The notes beneath the pieces were generated by a model. It did not search any database and had not been told where the DNA came from. It worked only from the letters and a program-made list of their open reading frames with translations. A stretch of DNA of 64,000 bases from Isurus oxyrinchus (taxonomy: Eukaryota). The stretch is from NCBI GenBank assembly GCA_026770705.1, contig JANJGN010000152.1:806001-870000 (forward strand), in the 5' to 3' direction. Of this stretch, positions 2,351-60,303 are shown piece by piece; the first letter of the stretch is position 1; every line of letters starts with the position of its first letter. A program made the position numbers and the translations under genes.

Positions 2351-2540
2351 GGTTTCAACCTTCAACGAATCCCGTGAGCCAAACAAACAGCCAACCCATC
2401 ATCCAAGTGCACCCTGGACTCTGTCGATTGGTCCGTGCCGATTACCTGAATATGTTTAGGTATAAGGAAGGTACTTTACCTGCAATGTTAAATCTGTTAA
2501 TATTTCCACAGATGCTGCCTTTTTCATAATCCACGCTATT

Positions 2541-2557
2541 ACTGCCCTCTGGTGGCC
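2541..2557 (-). promoter_or_regulatory. Candidate CTCF-binding element
   Basis: Minus strand reads GGCCACCAGAGGGCAGT, matching the core CCASYAGRKGGCRS. Confidence 0.65.
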
Positions 2558-3267
2558 CTTACTTAACAATCTTCTCAAACTCAGTTCAGAGAAAGTGGGT
2601 GGCTCAGGGTAATGAACAGCGGAACCTGGCAGATTTTCTATGTAATTGTTTTTTGATGGCGTTCACATCTAGTCTCCGCTAGAAGTTACATCAGCAGGCA
2701 AAGTTCCTGATTTACAAATTGGCGGGAGTAGCTGTATGAGGGTTTAACTGGTTTCCAACATTGTGAGTCTAAGGGAGCAATAATAAACTACAGCTTTGTT
2801 CAGCTGAAGATGCTGAATTTTGTCAAGTTGGCAAGTGTGCACTGTAAACCAGATTTCAGCAAAATGCGCTTTATCTTCAGAGTCGTTTGGATATTTTATC
2901 AGATTAAGCACTGGCTGTGTTTCAGTTTCTGGCTGATAACAGTTGCCTCTCCATGTATTATTATTGGTGCATTTTAAGTTCGCCGGTTATCCTTTCCTTA
3001 CTCCTGAGGACAGCGGCTGCATTACAGAACCTCCGTGACTCAGACCTGATAAAGACGCTACAACAGGAAAAGATAAAACAGACGGGTAGCTTTGCCTGGA
3101 TGAAGTAAACTTATGAAAATCAGATTCCTCACCACCAGGTGCCGTCTAAACTAAAAACATGAATAAGTATAAATGCAGTAGAGTTTCGAACCGGAAATTG
3201 TTGAACTCACTCCTGAGTTCCGAAGGCGAACAAGTGTTGTAAAGAAGCACCCTGTAGTGCAATGTCG

Positions 3268-12201: not shown

Positions 12202-12652
12202 CTGTATTCCCCATGTTCCTTACTGCTAATAATGGCTTGCTGCCCGGTGAGTCAATGCTTAAATGGTCAGTGTCCATTACTTGCGTTATCTTTACTCCCA
12301 GATATTTGATACATTCTGTGCTTTGTTGCAGGAACAAATGGTAAAGATTCAGTTTCCCAAGATCCCCCTGAGTTAACGGTTCTGGAAGGACAGAGCATAA
12401 AACTGGACTGTAATTACTCGACAGCTGCTGTTTCAACTCTGTTCTGGTACATCCAGTATCCCGGGGAAGCTCCGAGATATTTAATGAAGATATATCGCTT
12501 AGGGGATGCAGAGAAGTCTCCAGATTCCCCAGACAGGTTCTCAGCTGTTTTGCACAAAGGAAATAAAATGATTCCTTTAAATATCGCAGGGGTTCTCCTC
12601 TCCGACAGTGCCATATAGTTCTGTGCCATGCTGCAGAGATACAGCGGATCCC
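12202..12652 (+). pseudogene. TCR V pseudogene with heptamer and nonamer deleted
   Basis: Exon from 12332: DSVSQDPPELTVLEGQSIKLDCNYSTAAVSTLFWYIQYPGEAPRY..DSAI*FCAM; damaged leader; only the RSS spacer remains. Confidence 0.9.
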
Positions 12653-12807
12653 AGTTCCGGTTAGTGCTCAGAAGAGGGCGCACTCACACCGATAAACGGA
12701 AGCAATAGCTCGGACTTAAAGGATCACAAACTTTTAATAAAATATCAAAATAAAGGCAGCGCTGAAGAAGAACGGGCGGGCAGCAACTGGGGAATTATAT
12801 TATAGTA

Positions 12808-17132: not shown

Positions 17133-17151
17133 TGGCGCCCTCTGCTGGCGG
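17133..17151 (-). promoter_or_regulatory. Candidate CTCF element between divergent V promoters
   Basis: Minus strand reads CCGCCAGCAGAGGGCGCCA; conserved at 33624-33642 and 60285-60303. Confidence 0.75.
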
Positions 17152-18107: not shown

Positions 18108-18603
18108 ATGAGGAACCGTCTCGCTCTGCTCCTCATCATTATCTCACTTCTCAGGTATTTCCTTCCTGGAAAAACTAGATTCTCCTCCTGACAATGTAGC
18201 CCAGATGCTATTGTTGGTAAGAAAAAACTGATGATGATGATTATGTTGATTAAAATGAGGCTGAGGCTAATTGTTGTTTTTACTATATTTTCACGTTAGA
18301 ATGGAGCCACCCAGACACAGTGGAACAACGGGTTGCTGAAATAACGGCGGAAGAAGAAAGAAATGCTACCCTAACTTGCACCTTGAAAACAATCAATTCT
18401 AACCCTTATGTGTACTGGTACAGTCAGCGCCTTGGGCAGCCTCCAAAGTACATGCTCCGTATCCTGGGAGGGGAGGTATACAGACACACCGACATTCCCG
18501 ACCGCTTTTCAGCTACTTTGAATAAAACAGCTAAGATTACCGAGCTAATGATCTGCAACGTCCTGATCTCTAACAGTGCGGTATATTTCTGTGCCACGCA
18601 ACC
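18108..18603 (+). CDS. TCR V segment with an open V exon (18300-18603) and an out-of-phase leader donor
   Basis: Leader MRNRLALLLIIISLL; exon DTVEQRVAEITAEEERNATLTCTLKTINSNPYVYWYSQR..SAVYFCATQP; RSS CACACTG(18604-18610)-24-ACAAAAACC(18635-18643). Confidence 0.8.
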
Positions 18604-19249
18604 CACACTGCTGCAGAAATATAGCGGATCCAGTACAAAAACCTAACACCGAGAGTTCCAGTTAGTGCTCAGCAGAAGGTGCGCTGACACCAATAAACAG
18701 ATTAAATAATCCCGCCTCCACAGCGAGAGTCTCAGGGACCATCGCAAAATTGCAACAAAACACAACCCCCTCCAAGATCCGACAATGACCACTTCAGCAG
18801 TAATATCAACGTGCGATTTCAACTCGAGCCTATAAGAAAAATGAACATCGTGAATCGATCTGTGGTGCTTTCACACACCTTTCTTTTCCTTGGATGCCCG
18901 TCCCTGCCGACTTGTTCTTTCTCAGTCTCTGCCTTCACTCGTTATGAATAATTTCAGCCATTCTCTTCTTCCAGTCTTTACAATAAACGTTTCAGGCCAT
19001 TGATACTTGTTGTAAATTACCTCAGACTAACGCAGCTGCCCATAGATTCAGGCCCAGTTTTATCCGAGGTTGCTGACGTGGATTCCCTTTATTACTGAAT
19101 AACTTACTCATCCTGACATGCCTGTATTCATCCTATTCTGCCCAGTATGGAATGAATGTGAAAGTACAGCAGTTCTCATAGAGAGACAGAGTTACATCAT
19201 TTTCGAACGTGGTATTATTGTTATTATTGATTTCAGCTCCTGACAAATG

Positions 19250-20429: not shown

Positions 20430-20448
20430 GAGCGCCCTCTGCTGAGCA
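20430..20448 (-). promoter_or_regulatory. RSS-associated candidate CTCF element
   Basis: Minus strand reads TGCTCAGCAGAGGGCGCTC, about 20 bp beyond the nonamer at 20469-20477. Confidence 0.7.
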
Positions 20449-20468
20449 CAAACTGGAATTCCCAGTGG

Positions 20469-20945
20469 GGTTTTTGCTCCGGACCTGCTATATCTCTATA
20501 GCAGTTTGGGTTCTATGGCACAGAAATACACGGCGTTGTCGGAGAGAAGAGCCCCGGAGAAATTTAAATGAACAGTTTTGCTTCCTATGTGCAAATCAGC
20601 AGAGAACCTGTCTGTTAAGTTTGGAGACTGCTCTTCATCCCCCAACTTTATATTTTCAGTAAATATCTCGGAGCTTCGCCAGGATGCTGGTTGTACCAGG
20701 ACAGAGTTTGGGCAGGGTCGGTTGTCGAGTAACTGCAGTCCAATGCTATGCTCTGTCCTTCCAGAATCATTCATTCAGACGGATCTTGGGACACTGAATC
20801 CACGCCACTCGTTCCCGTAACACAAATGCAGAATTTTTCAAAAGTCAGTGAGGAAATATAACCTCTGTAAACACACTGACAATGTAGACATAGAGTGACC
20901 AGGCAGCAAGACCATCATTATCAGTAACGAACATGGGGAGCACAT
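20469..20945 (-). pseudogene. TCR V pseudogene
   Basis: Leader MCSPCSLLIMMVLLP (20900-20945); mutated acceptor; DSVSQDPSE*..LDCSY..WYNQHP..NAVYFCAIEP; RSS CAAACTG-24-GCAAAAACC. Confidence 0.9.
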
Positions 20946-32000: not shown

Positions 32001-32019
32001 CAGCGCCCTCTGCTGAGCG
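32001..32019 (-). promoter_or_regulatory. RSS-associated candidate CTCF element
   Basis: Minus strand reads CGCTCAGCAGAGGGCGCTG, about 19 bp beyond the nonamer at 32038-32046. Confidence 0.7.
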
Positions 32020-32037: not shown

Positions 32038-32590
32038 AGTTTTTGTCTTCGTTCCACGATCTCTCTGTAGCAGTGTTTGGCTCATGGCACAGAAATACAC
32101 GGCAGAGTGGGAAATCAATGTGTTGCCGATCGTTAGATCAACGATCTTGACATTTCTAATTAAGCGAAGAAGAAAACCAATGATTGATATCGGCGCTCCT
32201 GTACACATTCTTTCGAACATGATGAAGCTTCCACTCTGGAGGCTGCCTGGGATGCTCACTGTGCCACTACACATAAAAGCTGCGATTGCTTGCTTTAAAA
32301 ATGCAAGTTTGTGAAGCATTAATTTCCTCTTCATCCAGTATTTCATGAACCGGCTGTTCTACTGTGCCTTGATTGTCCCATTCTAACATTAAAGAAAAGT
32401 AAAAACAATAGTCAGCATCAGCTTCGTGTCGGTCAACATAATCATCATCACCGCCATCACTATTATTTTAACAACAATGACATCTGGGTCACAGCAATCA
32501 GGAGGACAGTGGACTTTACTGGGAAGGAGATGCTTGCTGAGAAATGATATAACAATGAAAAGCGGAGTGAAATTGTTCCCCTTGATACGT
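32038..32590 (-). pseudogene. TCR V pseudogene (inverted paralog of the 18108 gene)
   Basis: Exon 32078-32382 GTVEQPVHEILDEEEINASQTC..YV*WHS..SAVYFCAMS; RSS AACACTG-24-ACAAAAACT. Confidence 0.9.
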
Positions 32591-33623: not shown

Positions 33624-33642
33624 CTGCCAGCAGATGGCGCCA
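33624..33642 (+). promoter_or_regulatory. Candidate CTCF element
   Basis: CTGCCAGCAGATGGCGCCA. Confidence 0.75.
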
Positions 33643-35520: not shown

Positions 35521-36253
35521 TATTTCGAAAACAGGCAAATATTGAAATTTGAATTCAATACAAATCTGGGAATATGTCCATGAAACGACTGCCGGTTGTC
35601 TTAAAAAGCATCTGATTCATTTATGCTCTTTAGGGCAGGAAACCTGCCATCCTTATTTGGTCTGACCTACATGTGACTCTGGTCCCACAGCGATGTGGTT
35701 GACTCTCAAATGCCCTTTCATCAAGGTCAATTAGGGAGGGATGGGCAATAACTGGTGGCCTAGACAGCGACGCCTACATCCCATAAACGAATAATATATA
35801 TTATACTGTACAATATAACATATAATATAATATTATAATATACTGTTAGACTATATGTATTACAATATATGTGATATTATAGGCATTTAATGATGTGTGC
35901 CACACTCACGTAGATGATAGAGTGTGAAATCCAGAATTGCCACCATTTCGTGTCCTATCAACTTGGGTAAATTAACTGGCGGCAGATTCAGGCCAGGGTA
36001 GCTGCTTCTGGAGAAGTCAGTGCTGTTGTGCATCAATCTTAACGAACACCAGAACATTGTGCCCGCTAGAAGCAACCTTCTGGGACTCCACCTCACAGAG
36101 TGAACTGTGAGGGAGGTTCTTGCTCAGATTTGGTGGAAAGTGGGAGGAGCGCTCGCCTCATCATCCTGAATCAGACCGAATAATGAAAACAGTGAGAACA
36201 CAAATACTGAACAATGATCTCTGAGATCCTCCCAAAGGTGTTCATTTAAACCA

Positions 36254-36270
36254 GGCCAGCAGGTGGCGGT
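36254..36270 (+). promoter_or_regulatory. Candidate CTCF element
   Basis: GGCCAGCAGGTGGCGGT. Confidence 0.6.
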
Positions 36271-37003
36271 GCGGATTCGCTGTGTCTGCCACTGGCCATA
36301 TTGCCCCAAAGAAGGCTGACTGGCATTTGCTTTCATCTAAATTAACGAAAAAAAGATATTTCAGCCCTTCGATTTGAACTCATAATGTTCTATCTTTGCT
36401 AATGCCAATAATTTCATAGCTTACTTCATTACAAATAAGCTAGCTACTCAACTTGAAAGTTTGAAATTAAATACATTTGCCATTAGGAATTACAATTCCG
36501 ATTGGGTTGGGATTTTTCTGTCATCCAAAGTCTGCTTTCGCCCGCACACTTCAATTCGAGATCAATGGTGAAGGCATTTGCAGTTAAATAATAACACTGG
36601 AGTTCATTTCGCGAACCTGGGGCTAACATGGTTCTCATAGAGAGCTGGAGCTACATCATTTTCAATGGGCATATTATTATAGAAGCAACGTCCTCACGCT
36701 TCTTTTGTCCATGTGCTGTACAGGCAAAGGCTGCAATTAAACAGCGACGACAGATATGATATCTTTCTGGCCCTGCCAGTGTCAAGATATCATGAAAAGG
36801 TAACCTTTCCTGTCAGTATCCAAGGTGTTCTCGACAGCATTCCCTGTAAATTGGAGCCCCGTGGACTCAAGGATCTCTTTCACATTCATCTGCAGTTATT
36901 ATAGCAACACCAACAGGTCTGTGTGGTTTCCATTTTACCTTGTTAGTGTTCAATATTTGAGGAAATTCTACATTTTGTTTCAGCTGCTTTAATTGTTCGT
37001 ATT

Positions 37004-47979: not shown

Positions 47980-48680
47980 AGCCTCGCCCGCAGCTTTCGC
48001 CTTCTGCTTTACATTGACTGCCTTGCTTGCTCTGTTTTTTTGGGTAGAATGCTGCCGTTACTCCCTGTTTGGCATTTGTTTGGATCAGCAGTCCACTGGG
48101 ATGGAAATCTGCATTTCTGATCCGACAGAGAATTAAATGAATGTGGGGTTACAAACTCAAACAGCAGCTCGCATGGCCATTTCCTCATCATTAAATCACA
48201 GCTGAATACGTACTTCCTTCCTAATAAAATCAATTATCCCCCTGACTGCCGTAGTTTAGCTACTAATTCTGCTAAAAAATAAAACTGTGACAATGGTAAT
48301 GATGACGGTAATGAGCGTTGCTTTATTTTATGTTAAAAAAGAGGGAACAAAACTCAGTGGAAAAGTTAGTTCCAGAAATGATGCTTGAAAAGGAGATTAA
48401 TGTCACAGTGAGCTGCATCTCGGAAACAAGTGATTCTAACCCTTCAGTTTTCTGTTACAGTCAGCACTACCGATTCAGGTCGCAGTGGGTGTTCCAGATC
48501 ATCGGAGAGACAGTCAACAAGAACCTTTAAATTGCTGATCGATTCTCCTGCATGTTCAGTAAAACTGCTAATACCAACGAGTCAACAATCATCAATGTCC
48601 TGATCTCCGACCCTGTCTTGTTTTTCTGTACCATGAGCACGACGCAGTTCCAGGGATACAGCGGATCCCAAACAAAAAGA
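47980..48680 (+). pseudogene. TCR V pseudogene (family of the 18108 gene) with promoter and leader relic
   Basis: Exon about 48337-48640 NSVEKLVPEM..VSC..NPSVFCYSQ..NL*IADRFS..LFFCTMST; RSS GACGCAG-24-ACAAAAAGA. Confidence 0.85.
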
Positions 48681-49153
48681 CGTTGAATATTCCAGTTACT
48701 GCTCAAGAGAGGCCATTCTCGCAGCAATAAACGGAAGCAATAATTCAGGGAGAGTCACAGAGAGGTTTTAAAAAGTGTAATGAAGCAAGGCACTCAAAAA
48801 GAACAGATGAGGTCCACTGGCAAAAATATATTCGTTTGTAATTTTAAGTTATATATGTAATAAAATACAAACTCCACAAATGCACCAATGCAGCCTGAAC
48901 TCACCCTTTGTCTGATGATTTCCTTTTTGGCCCTGTACCTTATCATTGCCTGTCTCCACTTTTACCCATAATTGTTGAACTTTCCTTTTTCCAGTATATA
49001 GTTTAACTATATAAACCATTGTTTCTGCTCGGCATGTGAATTCAAAACTGCTCCAACCGACCTTCCTTTGAACCATAAATCTCATATCGGGTTATTGAAT
49101 GAACATTGGATCTCTCACAGCCTCTCAGGGGCATCTGAACACTTCATAGAATG

Positions 49154-49169
49154 CCCACCAGGGGGCGTA
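49154..49169 (+). promoter_or_regulatory. Candidate CTCF element
   Basis: CCCACCAGGGGGCGTA. Confidence 0.7.
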
Positions 49170-51689
49170 ATGCCACAACGTTCCTTTCATCAGGCCAGGG
49201 CAGCGGGTTAACTGTTGTATCTCCAAAATCTGACTCATTTTGTAATAAATAGCAATTTAATAATTCAAATCAGAATAATTTAATGGTATGTGAGGGTCCA
49301 TTGGACAATAGGATCACAAAGTAAACCCACATATTGAAGGATAGGCTTCAGATACTAAGCAATGAGTGGGACAGGTGAGTGGAAGATATGGAAAATGGAG
49401 GGAGGAATAAAGAGCCGAGGTGAGATCAGTTTTCTGAAGCAATGGACTGTACAGTTAGAGGGGATCGATGATAAAGGGGAAAAGCTAAATCTAAAAATCT
49501 TGTGATTTGTTTATTTCTTTGCTCCATGTGCTTTTGTAATCTGAGTGAGAGTTGTAGAGATATTCATCTTCTGCTGCTAACGAGTTCATGTCAACGAGAA
49601 CCCGCTCTACATCTTACCCTGGAGGCTATGAAACCAGTCTAGAGCTATTCTCCCTCCTGTCACATTAAACCAATGAGAGGTGTGATTATATGTGCATCTT
49701 TTTATTTTTGTGTGTTTATGAATATACCCTGTGTAGGTAAGGAAAGCTGTGCCTGTGTATGTTCAGGGTTAATCAATGCAGAGGTTCCTGGAGTCAAATT
49801 CTTTGTGAAGTCTAAGGGGTGAAAGAGTAAATGTGTTATCTCTTTGCATTTGAATTGAGGTCTTGTGGTGGGTTTTAATTTACAAGTAAACAAAGTAGAT
49901 TTGAAATATACATTTGGTGTTGTGTTAAAATTCATGTGCAGCTCGTGCATTTCAAAAGAGGTTCAAAGAACATTTTCATCTTACTGGAGATTCGTGAGAT
50001 GCGAAATAAAGGTAACATAGGAACATGAAAGGTTTTAATATTTGGGAAACCCAACGTTAAAGGGGTTTGTGAAGACAATGGGGAACATGAAAAAGAAAAA
50101 AAGTATTTAGGAAAGCAGCCTTTAAGCTGCAGTGAATTGCTGGGGGCGGGAGGAGGAGGGCGGCGGGGGCGGGGATGTCTCACTGGAGACCAGCTCCTTT
50201 GTTTTGCATGTGAAAGGTTTTTAATTGTAGAAAGTAGCAGCCTGAGGCCTGGAGAACATTGGTCCTGTGAAACAGTTTGTTAGAATCTGCTTTTTCAAAA
50301 CCACATCAGCACGTTTTGTTTCTGGGAAGCTGTAGATTGTACTTCTATTTGCAGTCGAAGGCAATTTCTTAACTTGGGTAATATTTCATGGATATTTCAG
50401 TTAAGACACTATAAGGGCAGTTGTCAAAAAGGTAGTTCATTGTGGAACTTAGGTGAAAGTTAAATTAAAGCGTGAGCTAATTCTTTCGGTCTGTAAAATT
50501 GTTTGTTCAGTAACAACAGGTATCATTGTTCTAATATGAAGACCCCATAAATAACTGCGAAGAATTACAGAATCAAACTTCAACCACTGGTTCCCTGATC
50601 TGTCAGGAAAGGGTCACTGGAGTCACAGTTAGCAGCATCCTGTTGGTGAAGCTGCTAAATGTAAGAGGAAGAATTAACGCTGGAATAAACCAAAATCATT
50701 AATAATCACAAGAACCAATCAATGAATTCTGTCCCCTCCCACCATTCTGCTACCCCACCCCACCCTTACACACATGATCCCAAAGTTTTTAACAACGACA
50801 CCATCACGCCTATGAAAAAAGTGACTCTTAGGGAGAAATTAAACGTGCTAAAAGAGAACACTGTAAGAATTTACTGAAGAAAACTTAAAATCCTCAGGTA
50901 GACATGGCTGCTAAGCATATTAAGAGTTGACAATTAACAGATGAATATTGCACAGACTTGAGAATCAGGCTGAAGACACAAGCAGGGCATAAAATAGATT
51001 AAGTGTATTCCCCTTTCACATAGGGAAGGGGCAGATGGTTTTAACTTAGATATGGGAAGACATACAATGGACAAAGAGGGGGCTTTGATGAAACACAAAC
51101 AGTCTTGAGCTGTGAAAACCAAGGTCTTTGTTGTACGAGTTTTAATTTTGATTGGATAACATAATTATGTATATCTCCTTTAGAATAATTGGTTAGCAAA
51201 ATCACATGTTTATTTACTCAATCGGATGGGGTTACCATGAGACCGGTGTGTCGGTTACCGATTGGATGTATTCAAATGTATTCAAATTTATTATGATAAG
51301 AAAAAGTACATAAGTAATGAAAAGTAATCAATCTGGGAACTGGGTCTTCATTCTTAGAAATGATTGCAGCTGCCTTGCATATGCTTGATTAAAACCGGTT
51401 AAAAGAAGCCTGAGAGTCTCTGGTCTCTTTGTAATTGGAGAGTGTAACTTCACCTCTTCCACTTTGCGGGATCGGAGGGTGCACCCTTCTGCACTGACTA
51501 TAGCCGAATTCGAGGTGTTTCCACTAACTGACAGCCAGATCACCACTTACCGGACTCAGGACACCACCGAAGATAGAGGAAAGTGAGGTGAGAGCATCAT
51601 GAGACACGGCAGCAGATCATTGAGAGTGAAGATGGAAAAGGGCGCCTTCAAATATCCAACTCCCCTTTTACAGAGCGGACAGTGGCAAT

Positions 51690-54274: not shown

Positions 54275-54306
54275 CACTGCCCACTGGTGGCGGTGATTGG
54301 AACTAC
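54275..54306 (-). promoter_or_regulatory. Candidate CTCF element with an upstream module
   Basis: Minus strand reads GTAGTTCC-aatca-CCGCCACCAGTGGGCAGTG, about 790 bp upstream of the intronless V ATG. Confidence 0.7.
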
Positions 54307-60284: not shown

Positions 60285-60303
60285 TGGCGCCCTCTGCTGG
60301 CGG
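60285..60303 (-). promoter_or_regulatory. Candidate CTCF element
   Basis: Minus strand reads CCGCCAGCAGAGGGCGCCA, identical to 17133-17151. Confidence 0.75.

Follow-up and report, generated by a model that had tools for sequence, protein, structure and literature searches.

A conserved CTCF-type element behind the RSSs of two V families in a shark TCR alpha/delta locus

Background

Do V segments of a cartilaginous fish carry, next to their RSSs, CTCF sites comparable to those documented for mammalian IgH (PMC6746451; PMC4914699), and, if so, are these sites maintained by selection and for what function? The question is raised by a window of 64,000 nucleotides from the shark Isurus oxyrinchus, in which an initial annotation noticed CTCF-like motifs at a short, apparently fixed distance behind RSS nonamers and suggested a V-RSS-CTCF module similar to that of the mouse. 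Here we analyze the motifs of this window, their distribution over the locus, the evolutionary constraint acting on them and their relationship to the condition of the adjacent V segments. The motif scores, in bits, were obtained with the counts of the CTCF matrix JASPAR MA0139.1 (column sums 908-913), cross-checked against the consensus printed in PMC6746451.

Results

The window corresponds to positions 806001-870000 of contig C152 (JANJGN010000152.1). Related V segments are spread over contig C26, from about 23.2 to 40.2 Mb, and over several smaller contigs, forming an array of at least 17 Mb. Contig C242 contains NAR-TCR-like and IgH-like Vs, two groups of J segments, two C exons and membrane exons. 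By their order, these elements are J-delta (590-608 kb), C-delta (616.8 kb, with a membrane exon at 619.3 kb), a large J-alpha cluster (660-743 kb) and C-alpha (749.5 kb, with a membrane exon at 752.1 kb). A search with the Pfam TCR-alpha-constant model produced a single weak match outside the locus, and the J and C elements were located by pattern instead; the alpha and delta labels of the C exons are ones that we assume from gene order and known motifs rather than from a family search. One V type matches VNAR structures only, with E below 1e-12 in 6 of 6 cases, and the nearest named protein to the Vs of the locus comes from Mustelus. The VNAR-like Vs, the IgH-like V, the J-delta/C-delta/J-alpha/C-alpha order and the Mustelus protein together bear out the original reading as a cartilaginous-fish TCR locus and identify its type as alpha/delta. 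A second J-C copy is located inside the V array (C26, 29.90-29.93 Mb); the surrounding region (29.86-29.95 Mb) is a J-delta/C-delta-like cluster with NAR-TCR-like and IgH-like Vs, and no J-alpha was seen in the 120 kb read. Because contigs C242 and C26 are unjoined, the orientations given for C26 refer to that contig and not to the true direction of J-alpha.

The sample, 1.51 Mb picked around search matches, is non-random. A first set of 286 Vs was reduced to 210 units at 95% identity, and a later batch added 59 rows. The units carrying the cassette described below comprise 57 from the first set and 5 from the later batch; the others comprise 153 units and 52 rows not collapsed among themselves, among them six family-related rows that were assigned to this group before counting (three family-1 Vs whose flank differs, and three Vs in which the flank is replaced directly after the heptamer). 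In three related V pseudogenes (C26:29601565, C26:36013573 and C301:137765), the same foreign sequence replaces the flank a few bases after the heptamer. We call a V intact when its exon is open and its RSS combines a CAC heptamer with a nonamer close to the consensus, a definition that leaves leaders and promoters aside.

Five motifs in the window follow Vs, all on the sense strand of the respective V. The motif at 20430-20448 (minus strand, 17.4 bits) lies 20 bp behind the nonamer (20469-20477) of an RSS with a 24-bp spacer (20469-20508, minus strand), predicted to be dead because its heptamer begins with CAA; the V itself (20509-20814, minus strand) is a family-1 (A) pseudogene with a frameshift and GG at the splice acceptor. 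Tail to tail with it is a family-0 (B) V exon with an open frame (18300-18603, plus strand), the RSS of which (18604-18643, plus strand) combines a CAC-type heptamer with one mismatch, a 24-bp spacer and a consensus nonamer, and is followed after 22 bp by a weakened motif of 7.9 bits (18666-18684, plus strand); the window thus contains a convergent pair of sites 1.75 kb apart. At 32001-32019 (minus strand), a motif of 17.7 bits lies 18 bp behind the nonamer (32038-32046) of an RSS (32038-32077, minus strand) whose first-register heptamer begins with AAC and whose alternative CAC register has a 22-bp spacer, next to a family-0 pseudogene with stops and a frameshift (32078-32382, minus strand). 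On the plus strand, a family-1 pseudogene with a stop in FR3 (12332-12628) has, by alignment, lost heptamer and nonamer each through a short deletion and retains a motif of 13.3 bits behind the deleted RSS (12665-12683). The two deletions fall within 12622-12665 and spare the spacer as well as the motif; near-identical copies of this V are found at several places on C26 and C151. A fifth, decayed cassette (48641-48718, plus strand) belongs to the decayed V at 48627 and consists of a dead heptamer, a nonamer (48672-48680) and a motif remnant of -0.6 bits (48700-48718). Only one of the five Vs is intact (18300-18603), and it has the weakest surviving site; the other four are broken.

The placement of the motifs at 20430 and 32001, on the V strand behind a nonamer, agrees with the initial annotation, as do the motif behind the deleted RSS and the decay near 48700. 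The third site had been placed at 18667-18685, one base off, and its supposed insertion is in fact two substitutions; the gap, noted as 19-23 bp, is indeed short and fixed and measures 20, 18 and 22 bp, and the spacer is 24 bp long instead of 23. A matrix scan detects 10 sites of at least 15 bits in the window compared with 0.47 in 30 dinucleotide-type shuffles.

The window also contains strong CTCF motifs (18-23 bits) that do not follow an RSS, at 2540-2558 (minus), 36253-36271 (plus), 49152-49170 (plus) and 54275-54293 (minus). A second and stronger class of sites (23.6-24.5 bits), at 17133-17151 (minus), 33624-33642 (plus) and 60285-60303 (minus), precedes family-2 Vs in the orientation of the V, mostly some 700 bp ahead of Cys104; upstream sites that score 15 bits or more occur in 19 of 23 family-2 units and 7 of 13 family-5 units.

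Within the 1.51 Mb sampled, a forward site of at least 10 bits is found behind 47 of the 62 cassette units and behind 1 of the 205 other V rows; when the three flank-replaced rows are counted as cassette losses, the fraction becomes 47/65. With the matrix, 40 of the 62 units score at least 13 bits, and position 4 of the motif is mostly T, where CTCF prefers C. The motif also fits the published CTCF consensus: of 50 ungapped units, 42 differ at no more than two places from the 14-letter consensus printed in PMC6746451. The geometry is tight: the nonamer-to-motif gap is 20-22 bp in 24 of the 25 units that have a good RSS, and of the 69 RSS-side sites scoring 15 bits or more, 68 share the strand of the V. 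The 24-bp spacer is a trait of the same lineage (29 of 33 cassette RSSs vs 2 of 98 others); a 22-bp spacer as the general register was rejected, given that several copies show a consensus or near-consensus heptamer in the 24-bp register only. Because the cassette units share ancestry, all these counts describe one lineage rather than independent trials. Deletions have removed the motif from 5 of the 62 units, including an intact V that occurs in three copies, and the last, out-of-sample batch was weaker: of its 5 new cassette units, only 1 had a site of 10 bits or more.

Genome-wide, the nonamer-plus-motif pattern has 43 matches compared with 1 for the reversed control, and 36 of the 43 are on V-array contigs. 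The seven matches outside the locus were discarded; by eye, the six that were read appear to be coding sequence for a retroelement zinc knuckle. This dispersed element with a CTCF-like word, present at six loci on C3, C4, C8 and C12, is a possible source of CTCF sites elsewhere.

The motif is part of a cassette of about 170 bp that encompasses the end of FR3, the RSS, a linker of 20-22 bp, the motif and a short tail of about 50 bp, and is common to two dissimilar V families, 0 and 1. The V exons of the two families have a DNA identity of 0.53-0.57, close to the aligner baseline of about 0.50, whereas identity reaches 0.83 between Cys104 and +60 and 0.70 between +60 and +120; linker, spacer and tail are alike in both. 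Some family-1 members have a 23-bp RSS and no CTCF site. Upstream of -30, the cassette-bearing family-1 Vs are closer to cassette-less family 1 (0.56-0.81) than to family 0 (0.49-0.62); from -30 to +150, they are closer to family 0 (0.55-0.85) than to cassette-less family 1 (0.46-0.70). This mosaic structure indicates that a crossover took place where FR3 ends. The protein tree places all 13 family-1 rows in one group (96/98), separate from family 0 (100/97); AU tests of cassette transfer yielded p values of 0.33 and 0.30, with which the alternatives are neither proved nor excluded. The copies descend from one cassette and are therefore not independent. A homologue search with a family-0 V returned no match, and one with a family-1 V returned a single Mustelus gene model of family-1 type, whose read-through residues correspond to the RSS and linker and stop short of the motif. 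The best matches of this model in the I. oxyrinchus genome are 67-72% identical, and we take the read-through as indirect support for a cassette shared with another shark.

To assess constraint on the motif, events were counted by parsimony on a tree built without the motif columns and fitted to the flank columns. Over 62 units, 17 events fall on the 7 fixed positions of the published consensus compared with 406 on 60 flank sites (Poisson p 4e-7), or 2.4 events per fixed, 6.3 per degenerate and 6.8 per flank site; the motif is conserved above the duplicated flank, the outcome on which the original proposal depended. At the five positions of highest information, 8 changes are observed against 35 expected from base-matched flank rates, and without the three units that were found through the motif itself, 8 events are seen against 32.4 expected. 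With the matrix, information content correlates negatively with the number of events (rho -0.59, p 0.008), and changes lowered the score by less than expected (mean -1.43 vs -3.15; 0 of 4000 simulations). Within the non-coding cassette, the 6-base windows with the fewest changes are those of the motif core, with 10 events vs 21 for the best nonamer window. Conservation is strongest at motif positions 9-14, and the substitutions that are tolerated, namely C/G at 7, A to G at 11 and T to C at 4, agree with the base preferences of CTCF. In the same comparison of events among cassette units, the linker is no more conserved than other flank; it resembles what we take to be the CTCF upstream motif (zinc fingers 9-11). 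By these measures of sequence change, the motif is a real, selected CTCF-type element, and binding of CTCF to it appears very probable. A search for sequencing runs labelled as ChIP returned none.

No link between the site and V integrity was seen in the 62 units. Median scores are 15.0 for intact (n=15), 14.4 for ORF-broken (n=18) and 15.1 for RSS-broken Vs (n=29; p=0.97), and a site of at least 10 bits is present in 12/15, 14/18 and 21/29, respectively. The branches leading only to RSS-broken Vs have 6 events at the fixed positions vs 22.1 expected, a constraint at least as strong as that on intact branches, for which 3 events compare with 8.2 expected when one frameshifted V is classed as intact (1 vs 6.3 in an earlier set). 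For ORF-broken, RSS-intact branches (7 events vs 10.4, p=0.19), constraint is not significant. On C26, 41 sites are on the plus and 28 on the minus strand, and the window also contains oppositely oriented neighbors; a uniform orientation towards D-J-C is not found on C26. With scores indistinguishable between intact and broken Vs and sites facing both ways, the idea that each site promotes its own V by one-way scanning is not upheld. As to the resemblance to the mouse, position, strand and lineage restriction are shared, and the link to V integrity and the one-way orientation are not.

Sites that could pair with the cassette motifs were sought near the J and C segments on C242. The interval from the C-delta membrane exon to the first J-alpha contains 7 sites that score 12 bits or more. 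Six of them (C242:637008-659305) are on the reverse strand, and the strongest (24.3 bits, at 656332) is located 4 kb upstream of J-alpha, a TEA-like position. A 43-bp unit forms a 12.5-kb array (C242:764125-776622) that lies some 12 kb behind the membrane exon of C-alpha and contains 282 CTCF-like matches on the minus strand (13.6-20.6 bits) and 4 on the plus strand. All 206 exact genome-wide matches to a 27-base part of the unit are in this stretch of C242, and 6 of 20000 shuffled units reach 17 bits. In location and direction, the array is similar to the 3' CTCF cluster of Igh; beyond it, at C242 778220, lies a forward CTCF site. The reverse sites before J-alpha and the C-alpha array are candidate partner sites. 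The array came to attention post hoc, and the motif most common in it carries bases that CTCF does not prefer at positions 8 and 12, so that we treat it as a lead only.

Discussion

The explanation that best accounts for these observations, to which we assign a probability of about one half, is that the cassette motif is a conserved and likely CTCF-bound element that functions mainly as a loop anchor at the level of the locus. The motif is kept even behind dead Vs, which suggests that it probably contributes to folding the whole cluster instead of only boosting its own V. Under this model, a single recombination or gene-conversion event in FR3 would have copied the cassette between families; CTCF bound at the cassette sites would stall cohesin, and the stalled cohesin would divide the multi-megabase, mixed-orientation V array into loops, whereby V-bearing DNA would come close to the reverse sites upstream of J-alpha and to those behind C-alpha. 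A local benefit is possible for an intact V whose 24-bp RSS is predicted to be weak, but selection does not seem to depend on such a gain. Retention of the motif in pseudogenes could also reflect selection before the death of the V, or repair by gene conversion from intact copies.

The second explanation, possible and clearly less probable than locus-level anchoring, is an accessibility element of the mouse VH type, whereby CTCF behind a weak RSS would stall extrusion and let RAG use that V, the pseudogene copies being leftovers or refreshed by conversion. The strand is the same as in the mouse and the spacing nearly so; a function linked to the RSS more easily explains the fixed distance, and intact-only branches are constrained. 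A 24-bp spacer is predicted to weaken an RSS. This spacer is nearly restricted to cassette RSSs (29/33 vs 2/98), and weak mouse RSSs depend on adjacent CTCF sites (PMC11153149). Against a V-specific booster stand the independence of site strength from V integrity, the at least equally strong constraint on RSS-dead branches, and the intact Vs themselves, 3 of 15 of which have sites below 10 bits, including the only intact V of the window at 7.9 bits. Moreover, Vs and sites occur in both orientations, whereas linear scanning, according to PMC11153149, uses convergent RSSs only. The two functions can coexist.

It is less likely still that the motif is a barrier or insulator that limits read-through transcription or scanning past tail-to-tail Vs, or that its purine core binds another zinc-finger factor. 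Such roles would be compatible with retention of the motif without a usable RSS, with the conservation peak at positions 9-14 and, as bioRxiv 2020.01.01.891473 reports, with the fact that mouse proximal VH sites also impede scanning; however, the tolerated changes match the preferences of CTCF, and a barrier does not need a fixed distance from the nonamer. Neutral spread of one chance CTCF-like motif by duplication and conversion of the V 3' end, although in line with the descent of all copies from one cassette, the similarity of linker, spacer and tail across families and the five motif deletions, is largely refuted by the motif core being the least-changed non-coding part of the cassette and by changes that follow the CTCF matrix, albeit on a tree fitted to flank columns, and is very improbable.

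A selected element of this kind in a shark would extend the control of V(D)J recombination by CTCF and cohesin to the oldest living lineage with V(D)J; it would also show that such an element is able to move between V families and that pseudogenes may persist as loop anchors. A bolder and rather doubtful extension is that a transferable V 3' cassette, combining a weakened 24-bp RSS with a CTCF anchor, folds a giant mixed-orientation TCR alpha/delta locus in which dead Vs are kept as anchors and the locus-unique reverse minisatellite of about 290 motifs behind C-alpha is a super-anchor; on this view, jawed vertebrates in general would place V(D)J recombination under CTCF control, in a design rebuilt by recombination. 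The locus contains natural controls, namely sister Vs with and without the cassette and intact Vs with strong, weak or deleted sites, so that repertoire sequencing alone can distinguish a usage booster from a locus anchor.

The closest known counterparts of the shark element are the sites of the mouse and human VH clans II/III (PMC6746451; PMC4914699; PMC11153149), which have in common with it a motif on the sense strand at a fixed short distance from the nonamer, restriction to particular V lineages, a motif more conserved than the linker and an adjoining RSS predicted to be weak. In the mouse, the core 14-mer of RSS-associated sites is 17-19 bp behind the nonamer (PMC6746451), compared with 21-23 bp in the shark, or 19 bp at 32001, about 3-4 bp farther. 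Non-functional mouse 7183/Q52 genes typically lack the site (PMC6746451); the pattern of presence in functional and absence from non-functional Vs is not found in the shark, where sites are not depleted at pseudogenes. Over 98% of the mouse VH sites point one way, whereas the shark locus has both orientations. Features of the shark element that VH does not have are the TCR alpha/delta setting, the apparent movement of the cassette between families and the 24-bp spacer.

In mouse Igk, mixed-orientation sites fold the locus into multiple loops (PMC10121685), and the likeness to the shark extends to Vs and sites in both orientations, a multi-megabase array and reverse sites just upstream of the J cluster (PMC10121685; PMC11153149). 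However, mouse V-kappa segments have no RSS-proximal site and no correlation between site and V orientation, as stated in PMC5859386, and Igk RSSs are strong, whereas the shark sites follow the V strand and the adjoining RSS looks weak. Mouse Tcra/Tcrd (PMC5859386; PMC13639285) is the same type of locus and has a V-facing site upstream of J-alpha, at TEA; promoter-side sites occur at some of its V families, as they do in the shark at families 2 and 5. In contrast to the shark cassette, the mouse alpha/delta sites described in PMC5859386 are upstream of promoters or intergenic rather than on the RSS side, and 129 of 144 point one way.

A literature search to which most subscription journals were inaccessible found no report of RSS-side CTCF sites in shark TCR loci. 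Because the two sampled IgH-type Vs have no RSS-side site and the mouse alpha/delta sites are promoter-side or intergenic, convergence with mammalian VH appears more likely than shared descent. The shark element can be regarded as a variant of the known RSS-side CTCF design that differs from the mouse VH class in two features, the link to V integrity and uniform orientation.
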